A stretch of DNA of 45,905 bases from a virus. Its lineage: Duplodnaviria > Heunggongvirae > Uroviricota > Caudoviricetes. Below the pieces are notes generated by a model. The model saw only the letters and a list, made by a program, of their open reading frames with translations, searched no databases and was not told where the DNA came from. The translations under genes and the position numbers were made by a program. Shown here piece after piece: positions 1,819 to 33,296 of the stretch (position 1 is its first letter; every line of letters begins with the position of its first letter). Location of the stretch: the IMG/VR virus record IMGVR_UViG_643348547_000010, positions 1-45,905 of that record; one strand, given 5' to 3'.

Positions 1819-3342
1819 TTGATAATCAGCGAAATGCAACGCAAGCTTGCCACATGGGCAGCCACCGATCCGTCCCTACGGATTCAACGGCTGCTGCGTC
1901 TAATAACACAACCAGAATGGCTGGCTGAAGCGGCGCGGATCACGCTTTCATCAAAGGGGGCCCATACCCCCGGCGTTGATGGCGTGAACAAAACAATGCT
2001 ACAGGCCAGACTGGCTGTTGAGCTGCAAATCCTCAGGGATGAATTACTCTCAGGCCACTACCAGCCCTTGCCCGCCAGACGGGTTTACATCCCTAAAAGC
2101 AACGGCAAACTGCGACCACTGGGTATCCCCGCGTTGCGGGATCGTATTGTTCAGCGGGCCATGCTGATGGCGATGGAGCCGATATGGGAGAGTGATTTTC
2201 ATACGCTCTCATATGGCTTCCGGCCTGAGCGCAGTGTCCACCACGCGATCCGCACGGTGAAATTACAGCTCACAGACTGCGGTGAAACCCGGGGACGCTG
2301 GGTGATTGAAGGCGACCTGTCCAGTTACTTCGACACCGTACATCATCGACTGCTGATGAAGGCTGTACGCCGCAGGATCAGTGACGCACGTTTCATGACT
2401 CTGCTGTGGAAAACCATCAAGGCGGGACATATCGATGTCGGTCTCTTTCGGGCGGCCAGTGAAGGTGTGCCACAGGGCGGTGTTATATCGCCGCTATTAT
2501 CGAACATCATGCTGAATGAGTTCGATCAATACCTGCATGAGCGCTACCTGAGCGGGAAAGCCAGAAAAGATCGGTGGTACTGGAATAACAGTATCCAACG
2601 GGGCCGAAGTACGGCGGTCAGAGAAAACTGGCAGTGGAAACCCGCGGTGGCGTACTGCCGCTATGCCGATGATTTTGTCCTCATCGTCAAAGGCACCAAA
2701 GCACAGGCGGAAGCCATCAGGGAGGAGTGTCGGGGTGTGCTCGAAGGCAGTCTGAAACTCAGGCTGAACATGGATAAGACTAAAATCACCCATGTTAATG
2801 ACGGCTTTATCTTTCTGGGGCACAGGATCATTCGCAAACGCAGTCGTTATGGCGAGATGCGAGTGGTCTCAACGATCCCGCAGGAGAAAGCCAGAAACTT
2901 CGCCGCATCGCTGACAGCACTGTTATCAGGCAACTACAGTGAAAGCAAAGTCGATATGGCTGAACAACTCAACCGAAAACTGAAAGGCTGGGCCATGTTC
3001 TATCAGTTCGTTGATTTTAAGGCCAAAGTCTTCAGTTATATCGACCGTGTCGTGTTCTGGAAGCTGGCTCACTGGCTGGCCCGCAAATACCGTACAGGTA
3101 TCGCTTCCCTGATGAGGTGGTGGTGTAAATCACCGAAACCGGGTCAGAGCAAAACGTGGGTTTTATTTGGTAAAACCAATCACGGCAAGCTCAGCGGCGA
3201 AATACTGTACCGGTTGGTGGGGCAAGGCAAGAAGCTGTTCCGCTGGCGGCTACCCGAAGGTAATCCCTATCTGAGGACGGAGACCAGAAACACGTATACA
3301 TCGCGCTTTACAGAAGTGGCAATGGCGTTCGCCAGCATTTAA
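1819..3342 (+). CDS. Group II intron-encoded reverse transcriptase/maturase
   Basis: 507-aa ORF with RT palm motifs (FDTVHHRLL, YADDFVLIV) and C-terminal maturase-like region; no HNH/En motifs visible. Confidence 0.9.
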   Translation: MIISEMQRKLATWAATDPSLRIQRLLRLITQPEWLAEAARITLSSKGAHTPGVDGVNKTMLQARLAVELQILRDELLSGHYQPLPARRVYIPKSNGKLRPLGIPALRDRIVQRAMLMAMEPIWESDFHTLSYGFRPERSVHHAIRTVKLQLTDCGETRGRWVIEGDLSSYFDTVHHRLLMKAVRRRISDARFMTLLWKTIKAGHIDVGLFRAASEGVPQGGVISPLLSNIMLNEFDQYLHERYLSGKARKDRWYWNNSIQRGRSTAVRENWQWKPAVAYCRYADDFVLIVKGTKAQAEAIREECRGVLEGSLKLRLNMDKTKITHVNDGFIFLGHRIIRKRSRYGEMRVVSTIPQEKARNFAASLTALLSGNYSESKVDMAEQLNRKLKGWAMFYQFVDFKAKVFSYIDRVVFWKLAHWLARKYRTGIASLMRWWCKSPKPGQSKTWVLFGKTNHGKLSGEILYRLVGQGKKLFRWRLPEGNPYLRTETRNTYTSRFTEVAMAFASI

Positions 3343-3347
3343 ATGGA

Positions 3348-3381
3348 GAGCCGGATGCGCTGAAAGGTGCACGTCCGGTTC
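3348..3381 (+). ncRNA. Group II intron domain V
   Basis: GAGCCGGATGCGCTGAAAGGTGCACGTCCGGTTC: 34-nt hairpin with AGC triad and GNRA-type loop, located just after the IEP stop and followed by a short domain VI-like hairpin. Confidence 0.8.
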
Positions 3382-3404
3382 GGGGAGGAGAGGCAGGGAA
3401 ATAG

Positions 3405-3905
<501 letters not shown>

Positions 3906-6449: not shown

Positions 6450-9400
6450 AACGTTCTTCCAGAGACTGAACCCGCTCTTTTATCTTATCCATTTCTCTGC
6501 GCTGCCATGCTGCCTCGATATAGAATAAGAGATCAGGTCTGACCCCCCATCTAGATCCTGCTGGCGTTATTTCAACGCGCTCAATGATGTCTTCTATTAC
6601 CATCACTGGATTATCATCCTCATCAACAATGATGCTCCCGTCATTATCAGTCAGCGGCATTTCCCTTTGGCCAGTAATGACGTCATCATATACTGCGGGA
6701 TAATCGTCATAGCAAAGAAAGGCATAGCGGCATGTTGTGCTTTCTTCTTCCATGAGTCCGTGAGAAATAAGAACATCACGAAGTTGCTGCGCGATTACAC
6801 CATGATGTATCCTCGCCCCTTCTTCCCCCTTTATAGCGACAGCGTTCAGCCATTTATAAGCGATATACCTGACGTCACCCCAGGCATCCAGCAATGCTTC
6901 GTCAGGAGAGACCGGCTCTGTCTTTAATGTTCCGTCACTGGTAACCACAGGATTGGAGCCAAGATAAACTGTCGAGAACCTGTTTCCCGGACCACCAAGA
7001 GCATTTACATTATCAAGATAAGGTTTAACATCTCCGTTCTCAAAAAGATGTTCGAGTGCGTTATATACCGCGCGACGTGGAGTACTGCTTCCGGAACCAT
7101 GCAACGTTATCATTGCACCATCTGCTGAAGACGTTGTTTCACCGCCGCTAACGATTAATCTCTGAGCGGTAACATCATCAGACGGTACTTTCTTCGCAAT
7201 AATGGCGTAATTACCCTCAAGTTTGACTTCCGCGCGAACTTGTCCTGATGTACCTGCATGGACAGTCAGTGACTGGACGGCAACATCATCTGTGAAATCA
7301 ACGGGTACAGGAACCGTCCTCACGCCTGACGTCGACATAAAAGTAGGAAGCGTTCTGTTAGGAGTGGCTCCGTAGACAAAATCCCTTGAAACAAATTCTT
7401 CCTGTTTAATTTTCACCCTGAAACAATACAAATCAGCCGGGTGACCATCGTGAACATAAGGATATTTTCTGTTGTTATCCCCTATGCTCCATGGGTTTAG
7501 AAAGTCTTCCCCACCGAAAATGTAGTACAGCCAGTTGTCTTTGATACAAACTGAACCAACACCAACCGCAGAGTTAACTATTCCGCCCTGATAAATCTGA
7601 TCAGTAACATTAACCCACTCTACATTATCCAGACTCCACTCATTGACGTTAACTCTGGTCATAAATGTTCTTGGATAATTTCCTGCATAACGGTTATCAG
7701 GTTCTCCTCCTTCCCACTCACCAAATGCGCGCTCACTGCCAAAAATAATCAGCTCATCGCCAACTTTGGCAAAAGGAAGGTTTGAGTGATGAACATTATT
7801 TGGGAAGCGAAGAGAATTCCATGATGTACCTAAATCAGAGCTTCTGTGCAATGAACTACCGGGTTGAGTACTTAATGTCCCCCTGGTCGTCAGATACAGA
7901 ATGCCATCATAATATTTTACACATGGCTCAGATGCATTCGCCTCATATTCTACAGGTATGCGTCTGCGAACAAAGCTACCAGGAGAACCGAAAGCATCAG
8001 AGAAATAGAGTATCCCAAGCTCGCGTGGACCAATATCACCATTATGGTAGCCAACAGCAAAACTGTTATCGCTAATCGTCGCAAAACTGTGAATCTCAGT
8101 AACAGGAGTGCTTCCGTCAACAAAAGAAGGAATAGTTCCAAGACTGGTTTTTCTCCATGGTGACGAGTGAAATGATGTGCCAAAACTCCAGTATCTACCC
8201 TCGTTATTCTGATCCACATCCTGGGTATTTTGCGTCGTAACTGTAAAGGTATTTTTATCAATAACAGTAGTCACCGTCATATTCCCGGTAACACCTGTAA
8301 CACCAGAGTTTGAGAAGTTGACAAAATCACCAGCAAATAATCCGTGATCAGTAATGCGAATATAAGCGACTTGCTGATTTGCTGCTTTCGTTATACCACC
8401 ATAAACGCGAAGGCTGCGACTCATTGGGCGATCCCACAACTCTGCAACCTGCAGTTTATTTCCTCTCACGGTCCGCGTCTCAATTACAGCAAAAAGGCGA
8501 TTTCTGACAACCCCCATACTCATGCAGTGATAGTTAACTGTGGGATAGTTTTCATGTAAATCTGTAAGCCATTCCGGCGTTGTCCAGGTCTTCCCGTCAT
8601 CTCCTGAGCGAACCCATGCAACATGGAGGTTATTTACACCATGGCGGTCTCCAGCCATAAAAGGCGCATAGATGACATTGTCATATACAAACGTTTTATC
8701 CTGCGTCCAGGCGTTGTACCACGGTGTATCTGTAATTTTAAATAACTCTCCCTGGATAAAATCTTCAGAAGCATAAAAAAGAGGCTGGCCCGGTATTCTC
8801 TCAAATAAAAAACGAGCATTTTTAAATCGACTGACATCCGGAAGAGTTGATACTTTAAAAGTAAGCCCTAATCCGTCAATTTTATAACCTGGAGATGAGG
8901 CTTCAAGGCACGCGCTTATTGCAGTGGAATCGTCATTTATACCATCACCAACAGCTCCAAAATCTTTGGGGCTAATAGCATCACGCATTTTATCCTGGAA
9001 CGTTCGGTACACAGCCCCAGAACCATACTGAATAAACCAACCAAAACCACCAACAACTCCGGCGATTGCAGCATCGACATAATTACGCATTGAGCGATTA
9101 TTTACAGCGTCCTGCTCAAATGATGGATCTGCAAGGTTAGAAATTTTGTTTTGCTTTGCATCGTAATATTTTGCAAGCAAAGATGGTTTCATCAATGCAC
9201 GTCTGAACCACCCAAAACATTGCTGGATCAGCATCGTCAGGTAGTCAAAGGCATCTTCATGCACTTCGGGGAAAAATTTTCCCTGATTGCGAAGGTCTGT
9301 GTCCTGCACTACATCAAGCACACGATCTATCGTAATTCGCCATCCAGTAGCAAGCGGAGACGGAAGAACCACAGAACCGCCACTATAAGTGCCCGCCACA

Positions 9401-9670: not shown

Positions 9671-9687
9671 ATTACCTTTCGGGTAAT
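9671..9687. promoter_or_regulatory. Operator-like 17-bp palindrome (site A)
   Basis: ATTACCTTTCGGGTAAT, intergenic, upstream of 9763 gene. Confidence 0.5.
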
Positions 9688-10067: not shown

Positions 10068-10180
10068 TTTACATCGCACTCCTCTTGTGCCATAGTAATC
10101 GGGCACTGGCAAAATCCAGTGCCGGGATTGGTCTCCCGGATTACTAAGTGGCGCATACCACGCCAGACGTGGTTTTTTTA
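10059..10180 (+). ncRNA. Candidate structured leader or small RNA upstream of antirepressor gene
   Basis: About 120 nt between promoter/operator and an intrinsic terminator; contains stem-loops CACTGG...CCAGTG and CCGGGA...TCCCGG; no convincing ORF (track ORF 10119-10310 starts at GTG with no RBS). Confidence 0.3.
10158..10180 (+). terminator. Intrinsic terminator
   Basis: CCACGCCAGACGTGG followed by T7. Confidence 0.6.
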
Positions 10181-10337
10181 TGCGTATAGCACAGTCATGC
10201 CAGAATTATGGTGGGCTGAATGGGGGTCCGAAAGGACGCCGGTACCACTTAGGCCGGTAAGACCAACTCCGTTCAGTTCACCACCATCTGATTGGTCTCA
10301 GCGGTGGTGATGTAATTCGCTAAGTGGAGACGCCATC

Positions 10338-14286: not shown

Positions 14287-14613
14287 ATGACTAAAAATAC
14301 TCGTTTTTCCCCCGAAGTCCGTCAACGGGCAGTCCGTATGGTTCTGGAAAGTCAGAGCGAATATGACTCACAATGGGCGACAATTTGTTCCATTGCTCCA
14401 AAGATTGGCTGTACGCCGGAGACTCTGCGTGTCTGGGTTCGCCAGCATGAGCGGGATACCGGGGGCGGTGATGGAGGGCTCACCACCGCTGAACGTCAGC
14501 GTCTGAAAGAGCTGGAACGTGAAAATCGTGAACTGCGCCGCAGTAACGATATCCTTCGCCAGGCTTCCGCTTATTTTGCGAAGGCGGAGTTCGACCGCCT
14601 CTGGAAAAAATGA
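14287..14613 (+). CDS. IS629 OrfA
   Basis: 108-aa ORF, same protein as 422-748 apart from one residue. Confidence 0.9.
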
Positions 14614-15500
14614 TGCCACTGCTGGATAAGCTGCGTGAGCAGTACGGGGTCGGACCGCTATGCAGCGAACTGCATATTGCCCCGTCAACGTATTACCACT
14701 GTCAGCAACAGCGACATCATCCGGATAAACGCAGTGCCCGTGCGCAGCGCGATGACTGGCTGAAGAAAGAGATACAGCGCGTATACGATGAAAATCACAA
14801 GGTATACGGTGTGCGTAAAGTCTGGCGTCAGTTGTTACGGGAAGGTATCAGAGTGGCCAGATGCACTGTGGCACGTCTCATGGCGGTTATGGGACTTGCC
14901 GGTGTTCTCCGGGGTAAAAAGGTCCGTACGACCATCAGCCGGAAAGCCGTTGCCGCAGGCGACCGCGTAAACCGTCAGTTCGTGGCAGAACGACCTGACC
15001 AGCTGTGGGTGGCTGATTTTACTTACGTCAGCACATGGCGGGGCTTCGTCTATGTGGCGTTCATCATTGATGTGTTTGCCGGATACATCGTGGGGTGGCG
15101 GGTCTCATCGTCCATGGAAACGACATTCGTGCTGGATGCACTGGAGCAGGCGTTATGGGCCCGTCGACCGTCCGGCACGGTCCATCACAGTGATAAAGGT
15201 TCTCAGTATGTATCGCTGGCCTACACACAGCGGCTTAAGGAAGCCGGATTACTGGCATCAACAGGAAGTACAGGCGACTCGTATGACAACGCGATGGCGG
15301 AGAGCATCAATGGTCTTTACAAAGCGGAGGTAATACACCGTAAGAGCTGGAAAAACCGTGCAGAAGTGGAACTGGCCACACTCACGTGGGTGGACTGGTA
15401 TAACAATCGACGATTGCTGGAAAGGCTGGGCCATACTCCTCCGGCAGAAGCAGAAAAAGCTTATTATGCTTCCATCGGAAACGATGATCTGGCAGCCTGA
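14610..15500 (+). CDS. IS629 OrfB (DDE transposase catalytic part)
   Basis: 296-aa ORF overlapping orfA in the -1 frame as in IS3-family elements. Confidence 0.9.
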
Positions 15501-15542: not shown

Positions 15543-15896
15543 GTCGCCTGCGGCAACGGCTTTCCGGCTGATGGTCGTACGGACCTTTTTACCCCGGAGA
15601 ACACCGGCAAGTCCCATAACCGCCATGAGACGTGCCACAGTGCATCTGGCCACTCTGATACCTTCCCGTAACAACTGACGCCAGACTTTACGCACACCGT
15701 ATACCTTGTGATTTTCATCGTATACGCGCTGTATCTCTTTCTTCAGCCAGTCATCGCGCTGCGCACGGGCACTGCGTTTATCCGGATGATGTCGCTGTTG
15801 CTGACAGTGGTAATACGTTGACGGGGCAATATGCAGTTCGCTGCATAGCGGTCCGACCCCGTACTGCTCACGCAGCTTATCCAGCAGTGGCATCAT
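15543..15896 (-). pseudogene. IS629 orfB, truncated
   Basis: Encodes first 117 aa of OrfB then runs into the neighbouring IS end. Confidence 0.8.
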
Positions 15897-16219
15897 TTTT
15901 TCCAGAGGCGGTCGAACTCCGCCTTCGCAAAATAAGCGGAAGCCTGGCGAAGGATATCGTTACTGCGGCGCAGTTCACGATTTTCACGTTCCAGCTCTTT
16001 CAGACGCTGACGTTCAGCGGTGGTGAGCCCTCCATCACCGCCCCCGGTATCCCGCTCATGCTGGCGAACCCAGACACGCAGAGTCTCCGGCGTACAGCCA
16101 GTCTTTGGAGCAATGGAACAAATTGTCGCCCATTGTGAGTCATATTCGCTCTGACTTTCCAGAACCATACGGACTGCCCGTTGACGGACTTCGGGGGAAA
16201 AACGAGTATTTTTAGTCAT
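15893..16219 (-). CDS. IS629 OrfA (in truncated copy)
   Basis: 108-aa ORF matching the other orfA copies. Confidence 0.85.
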
Positions 16220-28397: not shown

Positions 28398-28690
28398 TCC
28401 TGTTCACTGGCCTCTTTGGCCATCTTCAAATACTGTTCAGGGCAATGCGCCATAACGCGCTGAAACAGTTCCAGCGCCAGATTGCGTTGCCCCTCATTAA
28501 ATGCCATTGCCATAGCGTCCATCGGTGAGATAGCGGAAAACACACGGCCTTTCTCCAGCACTGACCAGACAACGCGACGCCCCTGTTCACTGCTCATGAC
28601 AAAGCGAATGTCATCAATTTCACGCTGTGCCATGTCACGTTGATTACGGGCGTTTTCTTCTTTCAGTTGATCGTCTTCGTAATCTGTCAT
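28394..28690 (-). CDS. Hypothetical protein between portal and scaffold genes
   Basis: 98-aa ORF, coupled to flanking genes. Confidence 0.5.
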   Translation of the reverse strand: MTDYEDDQLKEENARNQRDMAQREIDDIRFVMSSEQGRRVVWSVLEKGRVFSAISPMDAMAMAFNEGQRNLALELFQRVMAHCPEQYLKMAKEASEQE

Positions 28691-30366
28691 TGTGATTGCC
28701 CACCCTGACCACTAACTGCATTCGCCATAGCTGACAAAACACTCGGATCCGAAGTTTTAGCTTCGCTTAGCGTCTTGGCACCCTGTGCCGCCACCATCCC
28801 CATCGCCATCATTTGTTGCTGCTGTTGTTGCTGTGCCCGTTGCTGGCGAGCCTGCTCAACCTGTTCCTGCGGAACAATGACGGTTGGAGACACTCCGGAC
28901 ATATCAGCGAATGCATCGATCGCCTGATCAACGTTGAGTTTGTCGAGAGCTTCTGGTTTCGCTTGCGCAAGTTGACCAATGAAGTTGACCGTAGACGCCA
29001 GACTGGACAGGCCGATAGACTTCTGCGCCTGAGCCATGACGGAAATGTATTCGACCTTCAGGGGCATACCTTCCATCGCGTCAGGCGGTGGCGGCAGCAT
29101 GTTTTTACGCACCATCATCGAGAAAGCGCGGTCAATGAGAGGATTAAGACATTCGTCGTTCAGACGCTCCAGAACCGGCCCCAACATCAGAAGTTTTTCT
29201 TCTTTCATTTCGATCACCGCTTCAACAGGCATCGAGCGGGTATTGATGTTCTGCAACATCATGAACAGATCGACAAAGTAGGCGCTGTTAATGATTTGAC
29301 GGGTGTCCTGAATGTCTGCCACCAAATCTGCTGTACTGGGGTTAACCAGATAAGCAGGCCTGAAACCATCCTGACCAGTAATCTGATCGATATACGTGAT
29401 GTCGCCAGGAAGAAGGGAGGCACGCTGATTCTTGAGGGAAGTCGGAGCAACCATCGGCGGATTGGTGGCTTTATCAATCAACTGCGACTTGCGCTTCTGG
29501 AGAAGCTGCAATGCCTTAACAGGTCCAAGCGCCAGCATACCCGGGCATGATGATCCATAAACATCTTCGCCGTTAACTTCCCAGCGCGGAGCCATAATTG
29601 GAAACTCATCGAATCCGGACTCACGCAACAACTTGTCGTTATCGCCACCAACCTCGTAATAAACCGATTTGAATGGCTTGTTCTTGCTATCCAGCTTCGA
29701 TGTATCGCGGTCAATGTTCGGGTAAACCGAATGCATCACTTCAATCCACTTCTCGTAGGTGCCGCTTTCCCACATGCTTTTTACGGATTCGCTGACGTTA
29801 TTTAGCCCGAACTCCTGAACAAGCTGACGAACAGTCATAGAGAACTTGCGGAAACAGGTGTCCACACTGCCACGAGGTGAGTTAGCCAGGTAGTAACTGC
29901 CTATCGGGAATGGCATTGTGCGAATGATGTCCTCGTCATCCTCCAGCACCGCCATTGCACCAGTGCTGTATGTGCCGAGGCTTCCGTATAACTGCGGAAG
30001 GGACTGGTAGAGATTCGAATTATTGAACATATCGTTCATGCGGTTCTGAACTGCCTCAAGCCACAACTTAACAGGGCCATAGTCCATCATTTCAGGATCT
30101 GGCGTAGCCAGGCGAAACCACGGACGGGCGGGGCTTGTTATGCCTGACATCATGCCGCTGGCAAGAGTGCGCGCCGCCATAGTCCCGGTCGAATCAATAA
30201 TGCGTGTATTGCGTCGATCGTTACGGTTAACCTCAGAAGTCAGAAAGCGGGAACCACGCGGGTTGATGTAATCACTCAACTCGCGCCAGTGCGGCTCGAA
30301 CGACTGACGCTCGCTTTCAAGTTGTGCGAACTGTTTGTTCAATCGCTCTTTAGTTGTTTCCGCCAT
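28687..30366 (-). CDS. Portal (head-tail connector) protein, T7 gp8-like
   Basis: 559 aa; Gln-rich low-complexity C-terminus (...QQRAQQQQQQQMMAMGMVAAQGAK...) like T7-type portals. Confidence 0.85.
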   Translation of the reverse strand: MAETTKERLNKQFAQLESERQSFEPHWRELSDYINPRGSRFLTSEVNRNDRRNTRIIDSTGTMAARTLASGMMSGITSPARPWFRLATPDPEMMDYGPVKLWLEAVQNRMNDMFNNSNLYQSLPQLYGSLGTYSTGAMAVLEDDEDIIRTMPFPIGSYYLANSPRGSVDTCFRKFSMTVRQLVQEFGLNNVSESVKSMWESGTYEKWIEVMHSVYPNIDRDTSKLDSKNKPFKSVYYEVGGDNDKLLRESGFDEFPIMAPRWEVNGEDVYGSSCPGMLALGPVKALQLLQKRKSQLIDKATNPPMVAPTSLKNQRASLLPGDITYIDQITGQDGFRPAYLVNPSTADLVADIQDTRQIINSAYFVDLFMMLQNINTRSMPVEAVIEMKEEKLLMLGPVLERLNDECLNPLIDRAFSMMVRKNMLPPPPDAMEGMPLKVEYISVMAQAQKSIGLSSLASTVNFIGQLAQAKPEALDKLNVDQAIDAFADMSGVSPTVIVPQEQVEQARQQRAQQQQQQQMMAMGMVAAQGAKTLSEAKTSDPSVLSAMANAVSGQGGQSQ

Positions 30367-30655: not shown

Positions 30656-30684
30656 TTGACATTTAACGCACGAATTATTACCTT
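30656..30684 (+). promoter_or_regulatory. Possible promoter for the tRNA transcript (TTGACA at 30656-30661)
   Basis: Consensus -35 hexamer; -10 is weak and overlapped by operator site E. Confidence 0.3.
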
Positions 30685-30693
30685 TCAGGTAAG
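30677..30693. promoter_or_regulatory. Operator-like 17-bp palindrome (site E)
   Basis: ATTACCTTTCAGGTAAG. Confidence 0.45.
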
Positions 30694-31014
30694 CAAATGG
30701 TTCATTCCGGTTATTAACCTGACTGGCTTGTCGTTAAATTGAACAGGTGGAGTGAGCTTTTATTTTGAGCAGTACGGCGTATGGCACATGCGCCGATAGC
30801 GGTCTGGATACGTTTAAGGGGCACCCTCCCTTGCTCGAGCAAACGAACCAGGTAGCCGGAATGTGCAAGTCGAGCGGTTTTATTCCGCGCACGGGGATTC
30901 ACCATCCCGGCGATTCGGTGTGACGCCTCGGAAGAGACGAGGGTACAACGATGAGAGCATTTATGGAGCCGCGACAAAGTGTGGCGCCTTAACAGGCTAA
31001 GTGCTCTCAGCGTT

Positions 31015-31091
31015 GTGGCATTAGCTCACTTGGACAGAGCAACCGCCTTCTAAGCGGTTGGTCGCAGGTTCGAATCCTGCATGCCACGCCA
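31015..31091 (+). tRNA. tRNA-Arg (anticodon UCU), phage-encoded
   Basis: Cloverleaf by hand: acceptor GTGGCAT/ATGCCAC, D-arm GCTC/GAGC, anticodon stem ACCGC/GCGGT with loop CTTCTAA, T-arm GCAGG-TTCGAAT-CCTGC, discriminator G, CCA; sequence differs from host argU. Confidence 0.85.
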
Positions 31092-31134
31092 GAATCACGC
31101 CTAAGGACCGTGATGCCAGAAGTTCCAGGGGCTT

Positions 31135-31176
31135 GGCGGTGATGGTTTCCCTTGAAGGACTATCACCGCCCTTTTT
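31135..31176 (+). terminator. Intrinsic terminator downstream of tRNA
   Basis: 9-bp stem GGCGGTGAT/ATCACCGCC followed by TTTTT. Confidence 0.6.
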
Positions 31177-31254
31177 ACAGCAGGACGCCATTGCGATGGC
31201 TTCATGCTGTAAACCAGTACAGCCACGGAAGGCATAACTCATTGCTTCCAGTTC

Positions 31255-31279
31255 GCCCGGTTCGCCGGGCATTTTTTTT
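31255..31279 (+). terminator. Intrinsic terminator
   Basis: GCCCGGTTCGCCGGGC followed by T8. Confidence 0.65.
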
Positions 31280-31387: not shown

Positions 31388-31735
31388 ATGATTAAAATCA
31401 ATAACGTACGTGGTGCTAGCGTTAGCGTCAACGGAGAAGACTTCACTGGTCATCATATTACGATTAACAATGGAAAAGTGATCGTTGATGGTGTCGAAAA
31501 AAATAGCAATCTTGACGGACAGATTAACGTAACAATTAATGGAAGCGTGGAAGGTGTTGAGATTGAAAATGGATCAGTGACTGTAAGCGGTGATGCACAT
31601 TATGTGAAAACTATGTCTGGTGATGTCCATTGTTCCAATGTATTGGGAAATGTAAACACCATGTCTGGAGATGTAATCTGCGAAACTGTTGGTGGAAACG
31701 CCAGCACAATGTCTGGAAATATTATCAAGAAATAA
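31388..31735 (+). CDS. Small repeat-containing protein (beta-strand-rich, bactofilin-like pattern); accessory gene
   Basis: 115 aa with alternating G/V/N pattern and tandem TMSGDV/TMSGNI repeats; strong RBS AAGAGGATG; own terminator. Confidence 0.6.
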   Translation: MIKINNVRGASVSVNGEDFTGHHITINNGKVIVDGVEKNSNLDGQINVTINGSVEGVEIENGSVTVSGDAHYVKTMSGDVHCSNVLGNVNTMSGDVICETVGGNASTMSGNIIKK

Positions 31736-31820: not shown

Positions 31821-33296
31821 TTAAGCATAGGGATCGTAATCTGTAATGGCCCTTCCCTGCTGGCTTTGCTGTCCTGGTATATTTATGCGTTTCGAGACCG
31901 GGAAAGCAAACGTCAGCAGTAGCGCATCGCCTTTACCCGGCGAACGCCCAAGCCGCTCCTTGATATCTTCCTTCGGTTCGATAACGATTTTACCGTCCAC
32001 TCGAACTTTGTACTCTGCCGCCGACAGGTCGTCCGCTGTTTCCTGGTCATCCAGCATGCCGCCCAGCCTCAGCCATGTCTTGCATGAGTTGAACATCTCC
32101 CCACGCTTGTTGAGCATCTGCGGGTCAGTAGACGCGCCACCGAACGGAACAAGTTGCCATGTGCGCCCCCAACCGTCACCGATTGACTTCAGACCAGTTC
32201 CGTAACCGAAGTCGATGAACACCGCGTCAGCCTGATACTGGTCTTCAAAGTCAGCGATACGCTTTGCCATAATCAGATCGTCAGTGGTCTTGTTGCCGGT
32301 CCACAGCACCTTACTGTGCAGCCCCTGCCGCAGGTATATCACCGCGTCATCAACACCGGAGTATGCAGGGTCAACGCCGATTATCACCGGAGCATGCGCC
32401 ACCTGCGCAGCGGTTACCACCCGTTTCATTGCCTCATCAGTAAGACCGGTAGGGATAAACTGCAATTCAGATGCATCAGGGAATATGCCGCGCACACGGA
32501 TTTTAACGAAGTCGCTGTCTTCCCCGTAGTCATCAACCCATTTCTGCAACTGCTGTTTGTTAGTGCCTTCCACCGTTCGGCTGTCAATCTGCGCAGTTTT
32601 CCAGCGGTGTTTATATTTGCGGAAACATTCGCGGAAACGTCCGGTATTACGCGTCGGGTTTCCGAACGCCACCCAGATAATCTCAGTGTCTTCGTCCGTT
32701 AGTGCACCCTCGGCAACTTCCCACACCAGATCCGCAATGTTCGACGCTTCATCGAATACCACGATGATGCGTTTGCGCTCGTTGTGTAGTCCGGCGAATG
32801 CCTCAGTGTTGTGCTCAGACCAGGGGATTGCGTCAGCTCGCCACCGCTTGTCGTGTCCAGGATCATTGCTGTACATCGCGGTAGCGGTACAGGTAAACCA
32901 GTCTTTCGTGATAGCAAGGTTCGACCACTTGATAATTTCCGGCCAGGTCTTCGTTCGTAGCTGGTTGTCGGTGTTGGCGGTCACCACGACCTTACAATCC
33001 TCGCAAGTGGACATGCCCCAGTTGATCAGCATTGAGATGAATGCGGATTTACCAATACCGTGACCAGAAGCGCGTGCCAGCATAAGCGGCTGATAGCGCG
33101 TCTCTGGATTCTGCAGGTGATCACGTATCTCTCGGAACGCATCAGCCTGCCACTGACGTGGGCCGGTAGCATGTGCCAGTTCAGTCCCCTCTTCCCCCCA
33201 CGGGAACGCATAGAGGGCATAGCCAAGCGGATCGTGAGTGAACCCTGCAATATCATCGATCAACTGCTCTTCAGGAGATAACGCTGTATCTGTCAC
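31821..33296 (-). CDS. Terminase large subunit
   Basis: 491 aa, Walker A-like ASGHGIGKS, acidic nuclease-type C-terminal half; directly downstream of small subunit. Confidence 0.85.
   Translation of the reverse strand: MTDTALSPEEQLIDDIAGFTHDPLGYALYAFPWGEEGTELAHATGPRQWQADAFREIRDHLQNPETRYQPLMLARASGHGIGKSAFISMLINWGMSTCEDCKVVVTANTDNQLRTKTWPEIIKWSNLAITKDWFTCTATAMYSNDPGHDKRWRADAIPWSEHNTEAFAGLHNERKRIIVVFDEASNIADLVWEVAEGALTDEDTEIIWVAFGNPTRNTGRFRECFRKYKHRWKTAQIDSRTVEGTNKQQLQKWVDDYGEDSDFVKIRVRGIFPDASELQFIPTGLTDEAMKRVVTAAQVAHAPVIIGVDPAYSGVDDAVIYLRQGLHSKVLWTGNKTTDDLIMAKRIADFEDQYQADAVFIDFGYGTGLKSIGDGWGRTWQLVPFGGASTDPQMLNKRGEMFNSCKTWLRLGGMLDDQETADDLSAAEYKVRVDGKIVIEPKEDIKERLGRSPGKGDALLLTFAFPVSKRINIPGQQSQQGRAITDYDPYA

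Follow-up and report, generated by a model that had tools for sequence, protein, structure and literature searches.

Two kinds of RNA signal described near early phage promoters come closest to the element reported here. The first is lambda nut, which, like the boxB-boxA-boxC leader of rrn operons, is promoter-proximal and, in nutL, carries a boxB hairpin with the loop GAAGA; in nut sites of this type, boxA and the boxB hairpin are recognized by a phage N protein. The second is put, found in HK022 (putL and putR) and, as a putL-like element, in HK639, where nascent structured RNA is made directly after the early-left promoter, ahead of terminators, in lambdoid phages that lack the N gene. The put elements are about 70 nucleotides (nt) long, consist of two stem-loops with a conserved sequence, and usually occur as two copies; their antitermination in cis depends on the zinc-binding domain of the RNA polymerase beta' subunit. 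They remain active without a tether (PMC9378689), and RNA-mediated (put-type) antitermination has been suggested for a close relative of phage mEp460 that has no N homologue (PMC12315714, 2025). We analysed a 45,905-nt stretch of DNA from a Caudoviricetes virus (IMG/VR record IMGVR_UViG_643348547_000010), called the window hereafter, and identified at 30775-31014 on its plus strand a conserved structured RNA, Domain A, which lies upstream of a gene for transfer RNA (tRNA)-Arg(UCU). Domain A is a structured leader RNA of phage early operons and belongs to a large, unannotated family in temperate enterobacterial phages. Its fold, conservation, positions, and linked terminator are documented below. 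By analogy with nutL and putL, we tentatively favor, at somewhat less than an even chance, a role as a cis-acting signal that governs read-through of the terminators behind it. An earlier reading of the same DNA, made from the sequence only, had centered on the tRNA and missed what is the main point of the leader, namely, that it is a mobile RNA family existing independently of the tRNA.

The structure of Domain A was established from two alignments (A1 and A2), covariation, a covariance model, and the minimum free energy (MFE) fold. On the plus strand of the window, it comprises P1 (30775-30783 paired with 30787-30795), P2 (30799-30806 with 30849-30856, variable at its tip), an invariant junction (30857-30870, CGGAAUGUGCAAGU), P3 (30874-30877 with 30885-30888), P4 (30894-30897 with 30905-30908), a pseudoknot (30900-30903 with 30917-30920), P5 (30926-30930 with 30938-30942, closing the loop GAAGAGA), and P6 (30947-30959 with 31002-31014), which encloses a variable insert (30960-31001 here, and 40 to 120 nt across the flavours of the family). 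The leader folds with an MFE of -139 kcal/mol (z = -4.1 relative to shuffled sequences), and helices of the P1-P6 type are recovered when the single sequence is folded. Together with the covarying helices described next, these values uphold the sequence-only reading in its view that the leader is noncoding and structured and could hold a small RNA.

An invariant 19-mer, GGTAGCCGGAATGTGCAAG, served as the anchor for collecting relatives from public collections and yielded 24 genome loci and at least 120 viral contigs, with 135 unique sequences. The genome loci were all from Enterobacterales, except for one chance match and one contig of a probably misbinned Bacillota metagenome-assembled genome; the Oscillospiraceae locus of this first scan (L021) was rejected as a chance match. 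The structure was read from an alignment (A2) of 61 representatives that shared less than 93% identity, in which 97.5% of the cells in the 29 pairs of five helices were paired, compared with 90.1% after column shuffling and 26 to 48% when the partners were slid by one to three columns. Twelve pairs showed changes on both sides (124 cells), and none of 500 shuffles matched the observed values; these sequences are related by descent and horizontal transfer, so that the shuffle statistics overstate their independence. Specifically, one covarying pair in P1 is G-C in 29 sequences and A-U in 30, one in P2 is C-G in 47 and U-A in 14, and three further pairs in P4 and four in P5 covary as well. The pseudoknot joins the P4 loop CACC to a downstream GGUG, with C-G replaced by A-U in six sequences. 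P6 covaries between flavours (GAUGAGAGCA/UGCUCUCAGC, GGUAAGAGCA/UGCUCUUUCC, and GGGUAGCUCAC/GUGAGCUACUC), and its duplex energy is -17.2 kcal/mol with its own partner versus -13.5 kcal/mol with swapped partners. The frequent G-U pairs, which would be A-C mismatches on the other strand, identify the plus strand as the RNA. With a covariance model derived from A2, the copy in the window scores 163 bits, and each locus yields exactly one hit.

These patterns bear on two explanations in which Domain A would have no RNA function of its own. First, the conservation could be put down to a gene for a small protein or to a site in the DNA itself (operator, packaging, recombination, or origin), given the short open reading frames (ORFs) on both strands and the hypothetical proteins annotated in some records. 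The compensatory helix variation, which includes strand-specific G-U pairs, argues against this, as do the variable hairpins with indels of arbitrary length and the annotated ORFs themselves, which differ in strand and frame between records; we regard it as scarcely credible. Such ORFs, annotated over Domain A in mEp460 (L001, 2943-3311 and 3353-3496, minus strand), Tyrion, Ayreon, and phiSTEC1575, are probably spurious calls. Second, Domain A could be a plain leader of a tRNA precursor, possibly with a decayed second tRNA, which would suit both its position upstream of the tRNA in the window and the T-arm-like GGTTCAATTCC in some P6 inserts (SPN1S and Stx2a_1447). However, 108 of the 156 loci in our survey of genomic contexts have no adjacent tRNA, the helices and pseudoknot that covary do not form a cloverleaf, and the domain is conserved across three unrelated phage types. 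Further, ARAGORN and Rfam detect no tRNA in the leader, and the degenerate second tRNA that had been suspected in 30693-31014 found no support either as an ARAGORN call or as a match to the tRNA clan at E <= 10. We consider this explanation very improbable, and the comparative data contradict a passive leader and a decayed tRNA just as they contradict a small protein gene and a DNA site. In the P6 inserts of SPN1S (L008) and Stx2a_1447 (L011), a perfect T-arm-like GCTGGTTCAATTCCAGAC is followed by AGTCCCA; this is a T-loop module or else a tRNA 3' fragment that has been captured.

Ascertainment of the first data set relied on the 19-mer itself; the second scan used an unrelated anchor, GGTGTGACNCCNNGGAAGAG. 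Among the sequences that it recovered, AAUGUGCAAG and the P1 tip UGGCACAUG were still nearly invariant, and the GGUAGCC part, which forms the P2 3' strand, varied. About 45 invariant positions are concentrated in the junctions, and, combined with a pseudoknot and variable peripheral hairpins, they would befit a sensor, or riboswitch-like RNA, in which the binding of a ligand, ion, tRNA, or protein would set read-through of the first terminator or expression of the next gene, thereby coupling early phage expression to the state of the host. RNAalifold additionally proposed that the invariant CGGAAUGUGC pairs with the 3' half of P1 (GCACAU..YCG), an alternative (GCACAU/AUGUGC) that would allow two conformations and could be a second pseudoknot or a switch, and in the P1 phage family, the core is followed, after about 65 nt, by the start codon of ban, as a sensor might be. 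However, the alternative pairing shows no double changes, with only invariant or wobble positions behind it, and the terminator lies 120 to 250 nt from the core, and an entire tRNA intervenes in the window, so that a classical overlapping expression platform is absent. The downstream contexts are also heterogeneous, and no known riboswitch class in Rfam matches. A sensor is, hence, an unlikely explanation in our estimation. More broadly, neither Domain A (30775-31014) nor its mEp460 copy matched any Rfam 15 family at the gathering threshold or at E <= 10, and full-text literature searches gave no description of it, although an earlier description is possible.

Domain A is widespread. In BLAST searches, the window at about 30774-31018 was approximately 83% identical to unannotated DNA of unrelated phages. 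Its carriers include lambdoid phages (mEp460, cdtI, 2H10, Ayreon, mEp390, and Shiga toxin (Stx)-converting phages of the Stx2c and, in some cases, the Stx2a type), the P1/P7/D6/SJ46 phage-plasmid family, Klebsiella and Enterobacter phages, and one phage whose recorded host is Stenotrophomonas. It occurs in 1839 of the 5426 complete Escherichia coli genomes, with up to four copies in one genome, and we never saw an annotation under it. Thus, an unannotated, pseudoknotted RNA that has no entry in Rfam is present in about one-third of the complete genomes of this species, and its carriers include Stx2-converting phages, P1-type phage-plasmids, and O157 typing phages. A pattern devised for distant homologues, GTAGCCN{0,4}GTGCAAGC, gave 120 loci, all of which were chance matches.

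Three contexts emerged among the 156 surveyed loci. In the lambdoid context (about 85 loci), Domain A begins 100 to 160 nt past the stop codon of a CI-type repressor gene (Peptidase_S24 plus helix-turn-helix), on the same strand. In mEp460, for example, the order is the cI stop codon, a terminator, two 15-base pair (bp) palindromes of a type also found between cI and cro, a plausible promoter, and, about 40 nt farther on, Domain A. Across 43 distinct loci, 11-mers shared with the cI-cro region fall between cI and Domain A in most cases and almost never downstream of it. The placement of these operator-like repeats indicates that Domain A is the start of the repressor-controlled early-left transcript and, as such, that it occupies the place of nutL or putL. 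The epsilon15-like context (about 45 loci) is arranged as in the window. In the P1-family context (about 20 loci), the core, comprising P1-P5 without P6, sits between trnI and ban, starting about 10 nt after tRNA-Ile(CAU) and ending about 65 nt before the start of ban; in D6-type elements, it precedes a gene with a Tad2-like domain. Truncated variants begin at the junction, without P1 and P2, or retain only GGUGUGAC-P5-P6, which makes GGUGUGAC-P5 the common denominator and P1-P4 an add-on. All of the truncated variants lie directly behind operator-flanked TTGACA promoters, downstream of a repressor gene. No protein partner is conserved next to Domain A, as the flanking genes differ between contexts. 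Just upstream of P1, in the window at 30727-30774 and in equivalent positions elsewhere (e.g., L012, 1464-1500), GGCGGAGUGCGCUUCCAGGUGUGA is present in epsilon15-like and Klebsiella loci; it bears a close resemblance to the segment that, in other variants, consists of the P6 3' strand and the GUUGUG junction, a hint that this junction has undergone duplication or recombination.

In the window, a putative early promoter (30656-30684, plus strand), read from the sequence, consists of a TTGACA -35 element (30656-30661), a 17-nt spacer, and a weak -10 element, TACCTT (30679-30684); a consensus promoter scan made no call at these positions, because the -10 element agrees with the consensus at only three of six positions. 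An operator-like palindrome, TTACCTTTCAGGTAA (30678-30692), overlaps the -10 region. The sequence-only reading had an operator overlapping the TTGACA element, and of this, the TTGACA and the operator repeat were confirmed, but the overlap is with the -10 region instead. The repeat, TTACC-N5-GGTAA, occurs 14 times in the window, a 15-fold excess over the 0.9 copies expected and a count reached by none of 100 shuffles; the sites include those at 9672, 10052, 11169, 33907, 37730, 37792, 40116, 40828, and 40890, and they are often paired about 50 to 60 nt apart, which suggests several repressor-controlled promoters. Epsilon15 carries an annotated repressor-binding site at the place equivalent to 30678-30692, and the palindrome could equally serve a divergent promoter of the minus-strand virion genes.

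Behind Domain A and the tRNA, both of the terminators that had been noted from the sequence were recovered. The tRNA 3' trailer (31092-31180, plus strand) ends in T1, a hairpin of 14 pairs (31135-31170) with CTTTTTACAG (in the trailer, CUUUUUACAG) directly behind it, and T2 (31255-31279, plus strand) is a hairpin of six G-C pairs (31255-31270, GCCCGG-TTCG-CCGGGC) followed by T8, ATTTTTTTT. An energy-based hairpin scan across loci located a strong hairpin (-16 to -26 kcal/mol) and a conserved UUUUUACA(R) after Domain A in nearly all lambdoid and epsilon15-like loci. The consensus of the tail is TTTT(T)ACA(R), and the hairpin precedes the first protein gene. The first terminator is, hence, a conserved part of the Domain A module and not a generic tRNA terminator. 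Most epsilon15-like loci have a second hairpin with T7-8. The first plus-strand gene after T2 in the window (31388-31735) encodes 115 amino acids of PHROG 3163, of unknown function; an insensitive scan called no consensus promoter between T2 and this gene, which, from the early promoter, would be reached only by read-through.

From this arrangement, we propose that a single early unit runs from the operator-overlapped promoter through a 5' stretch of about 80 nt, Domain A (about 240 nt), tRNA-Arg(UCU), T1, and T2 to small accessory genes. Every polymerase leaving the early promoter would make Domain A first, and Domain A would then decide whether polymerases pass T1 and T2 to the downstream early genes, serving as a stand-in for nutL or HK022 putL in phages without an N gene. 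In maturing the 5' end of the tRNA, RNase P would also cut Domain A free, and tRNA-Arg would additionally supply AGA decoding. Several lines of reasoning led us to this cis-acting explanation. First, as a terminator lies between the only operator-bearing promoter and all of the early-left genes in lambdoid phages, those genes depend on passing T1. Second, the first downstream genes are of unknown function, and none are N-like by domain search or PHROGs; the position and the logic of the arrangement, in phages without an N gene, point to a cis-acting elongation or antitermination signal. Third, the truncated variants keep their promoter-proximal position. The tRNA-like and terminator module found downstream of Domain A in many loci, which is distantly related to the small RNAs STnc100 and PasD, also agrees with such a role. 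If control of terminator read-through were correct, it would explain how early-left genes are switched on in lambdoid phages that lack N and would constitute a third solution beside N/nut and put.

How far the analogy with the described systems extends can be judged feature by feature. Like put, Domain A lies just downstream of an early promoter in lambdoid phages without N and ahead of terminators, and, since put is active without a tether, release by RNase P would not exclude a put-like mode. In size, architecture, and sequence, however, the two differ: Domain A has six helices and a pseudoknot and is present as one copy. A candidate homology, in which HK022 putL CAUGCGUCGGGAGCG matched the mEp460 P1 3' strand at 13 of 15 positions, was rejected, as 14 to 79 of 500 shuffles reached its score. 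The resemblance to nut is in the motifs. Specifically, P5 is a 5-bp, boxB-like hairpin with a purine loop (GAAGAGA), 97 of 143 unique sequences (68%) have a boxA-like YGCUCUYW downstream, within the P6 3' strand, and the GU-rich GGUGUGAC before P5 and a GUUGUGG flank P5 and the boxA-like motif. Unlike lambda nut, though, Domain A is not accompanied by an N-like gene, its boxA-like motif, which some variants lack, is taken up in P6 pairing, and the order of the elements differs. We therefore treat the comparison of P5 and the boxA-like and GU-rich elements with nut and rrn motifs as a lead. In one variant (L115, about 3340-3400), P6 is replaced by a hairpin followed by TGCTCTTTAACAA, an exact match to the rrn boxA consensus (UGCUCUUUAACAA).

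Other observations weigh against a cis-acting signal. By the covariance model, each phage has a single copy, and the rightward early operon has none, whereas HK022 has both putL and putR; the similarity to put is not significant, and neither HK022 nor HK639 gives a hit with the model. Neither P6 nor T1 accompanies the P1-family copy, which resides mid-operon, just before ban, and each of the neighboring P1 genes, from tciA to dbn, scored as nonessential upon knock-down by CRISPR interference (PMC10695390). In epsilon15, where Domain A is reduced to a 40-bit remnant, the terminator and the downstream gene persist. In some loci, antitermination could really be the work of another conserved leader element, of 64 nt, that lies upstream. 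Not all variants have the boxA-like motif, which is engaged in P6 pairing. Finally, release by RNase P, tandem terminators, and cassette-like mobility fit a trans-acting stable RNA equally well. In epsilon15 (L004), the remnant (1512-1633) has no tRNA, and its record places an RNase III site over this region, on the opposite strand.

The main alternative is a stable noncoding RNA operon, with Domain A, the tRNA or tRNA-like domain, and the 3' trailer as its products. Domain A would then act in trans on, for instance, RNA polymerase, a ribonuclease, the translation apparatus, or a defense system, while T1 and T2 would just end the unit, and the trailer would offer Hfq a typical binding end in its T1 hairpin and U-tail. 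We judge this possible, with a probability well short of one-half. It gains from P6 adjoining the 5' end of a tRNA or tRNA-like domain in all backgrounds, from the tandem terminators, from the residence of the P1-family copy in a tRNA cluster, and from the mobility of the unit as a cassette, which unrelated phages share at about 80% nucleotide identity and of which a genome can hold up to four copies. The loops and junctions that are invariant even under the independent search anchor are in line with it as well, as are the relationship of the 3' module to small RNAs, the Tad2-like anti-defense domains among the neighboring genes, and the nonessential P1 neighbors, which would be expected for an accessory function. 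It leaves unexplained, however, the strong terminator between the sole operator-controlled promoter and the early-left genes, and it has yielded no target, complementarity, or partner protein and no conserved neighboring protein gene. A related possibility, of similar probability, is that Domain A represents a new class of large structured phage RNA with an activity of its own or a dedicated partner (e.g., a ribozyme, an RNA that binds RNA polymerase or the ribosome, or an inhibitor or decoy of a defense system), which would be made at induction, matured by RNase P via the fused tRNA or its mimic, and spread as a cassette among unrelated temperate phages. Were the trans-acting role true, it would make Domain A a new phage effector RNA, present from the first moment of induction. 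Under either a cis- or a trans-acting role, Domain A is a testable element in tractable phages (P1, mEp460, and phiV10), and an entry in an RNA-family database would remove the spurious hypothetical protein calls over it.

Genes lying directly 3' of Domain A (L069, L092, L098, and L138, at +361 from the 19-mer, and the downstream ORFs of L131 and L120) include one encoding a protein with a Tad2-like (Thoeris anti-defense 2) domain (PF11195, E = 1e-9). A 98-amino-acid protein of epsilon15-like loci resembles it by eye only and is of unknown function in PHROGs. The site downstream of Domain A behaves as a slot for accessory or anti-defense genes.

A tRNA is adjacent to Domain A in 48 of the 156 loci. 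Where tRNA-Arg is present, it starts exactly at the end of P6 (29 of 29 loci), at offsets that range from +163 to +229, such that its start tracks the P6 end despite the varying length of the P6 insert. In loci without a tRNA, the same GUGG comes after P6, and many of them continue into a tRNA-like domain with a closing stem of 6 to 7 bp (GUGGUGA...UCACCAC) and D-arm-like and T-arm-like hairpins, some versions having the canonical GGUUCGAUUCC and others the complementary loops GCUGAU/AUCAGC; automated extraction of this domain across all loci was too noisy for formal covariation. That P6 ends exactly where the tRNA or tRNA-like domain starts suggests, from the geometry, that RNase P probably cuts Domain A free with a helix-protected 3' end.

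Similar layouts are known. In MALAT1-mascRNA and among the stable RNAs of the T4 tRNA cluster, a tRNA or tRNA-like element lies directly 3' of a structured RNA, and, in a MALAT1-like layout, RNase P cleavage would define the 3' end, as is predicted here from geometry. MALAT1, though, is eukaryotic, and the T4 species 1 and 2 RNAs are unrelated in sequence to Domain A. RNase P also cuts the P4 CI RNA and the P1/P7 C4 RNA from leader transcripts, and these act on their own operons; they are about 70 to 80 nt long, of the antisense type, and have a fold unlike that of Domain A. The window has its own C4/isrK pair elsewhere, at 10103-10288. Specifically, Rfam matches isrK (67.7 bits, 10103-10179) and C4 antisense RNA (61.2 bits, 10204-10288), both on the plus strand; the pair is also present in lambdoid mEp460 (L001, 706-894) and, in the window, looks like a P1-type immI antirepressor-control module in an epsilon15-like prophage.

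STnc100 (RF02076) and PasD resemble the tRNA-like domain and terminator that follow P6 in lambdoid loci, not Domain A itself. They are related, prophage-encoded small RNAs, and PasD was detected on Hfq by RIL-seq and confirmed by northern blot; a Q antiterminator gene lies within 10 kilobases (kb) of more than 98% of PasD copies, and the usual neighbors of STnc100 are Fels-1 prophage genes (PMC13192938, 2026 preprint). The resemblance surfaced in ST64B (L158), which we rejected as a carrier of Domain A, the covariance model having found no core, but which keeps a P6-like helix, the tRNA-like domain, and the terminator. Its tRNA-like domain matched STnc100 with 35 bits (E = 8e-6), below the gathering score of 47; STnc100 had no match in the window (E <= 10) or in 18 other loci. 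In place of P1-P5, ST64B has about 300 nt of a different GC-rich sequence (about 7570-7950, minus strand), in which the stretch CCUGUAGCC-AGUGCAAGCG faintly recalls the Domain A junction, and alternative 5' modules seem to have been swapped onto a common 3' module. A separate element of about 64 nt, AGCGAACAGGCAGGACGCCC...GGATGATTCGCTG, directly follows the early-left promoter in ST64B (7854-7953, minus strand) and is also found in L013, L015, L025, L028, L118, and L124. It has no Rfam match, is 81 to 95% conserved among phages of Salmonella, E. coli, Citrobacter, Klebsiella, Yersinia, and Pectobacterium, sometimes precedes Domain A, and may represent a further RNA of the leader or antiterminator kind.

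The tRNA gene on which the sequence-only reading had centered is real and, apart from its exact fusion to P6, ordinary. ARAGORN finds a single tRNA in the 45.9-kb window, a tRNA-Arg with the anticodon tct at 31015-31091 on the plus strand, and Rfam scores it at 69.5 bits against RF00005 (gathering score, 29); its nucleotide +1 adjoins the P6 3' strand. Its reported setting, between portal and terminase genes on the opposite strand, also stands, as the gap is bounded by minus-strand ORFs of 559 amino acids (28687-30366) and 491 amino acids (31821-33296), whose homologues carry the annotations head-tail connector/portal and terminase large subunit, respectively, in epsilon15, Tyrion, and SPN1S. 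The epsilon15-like phages TL-2011b and phiV10 share 99% identity with the window over this region. The tRNA shares 97 to 99% identity with copies in prophage-bearing strains but, across 71 nt, no more than 84.5% with the tRNA-Arg genes resident in other E. coli, which marks it as an acquired phage tRNA that is distinct from host argU. Some relatives (O157 typing phages 9 and 10 and phiv142-3) have it annotated, and it is, like other phage-borne tRNA-Arg(UCU) genes (e.g., argO of Stx phages), an ordinary rare-codon tRNA, already known in kind. Across 40 window ORFs, AGA and AGG account for 7.4 and 4.6 per 1000 codons, respectively, which is several-fold above the E. coli average. These codons are concentrated in the tailspike and accessory genes and are nearly absent from the virion genes that adjoin the tRNA.

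Elsewhere in the window, Rfam matched three ALIL frameshift pseudoknots of the IS3 family (703-819 and 14568-14684 on the plus strand and 15822-15938 on the minus strand), two of them inverted, and a group II intron domain (3346-3432, plus strand), marking this as a prophage with several mobile-element insertions.

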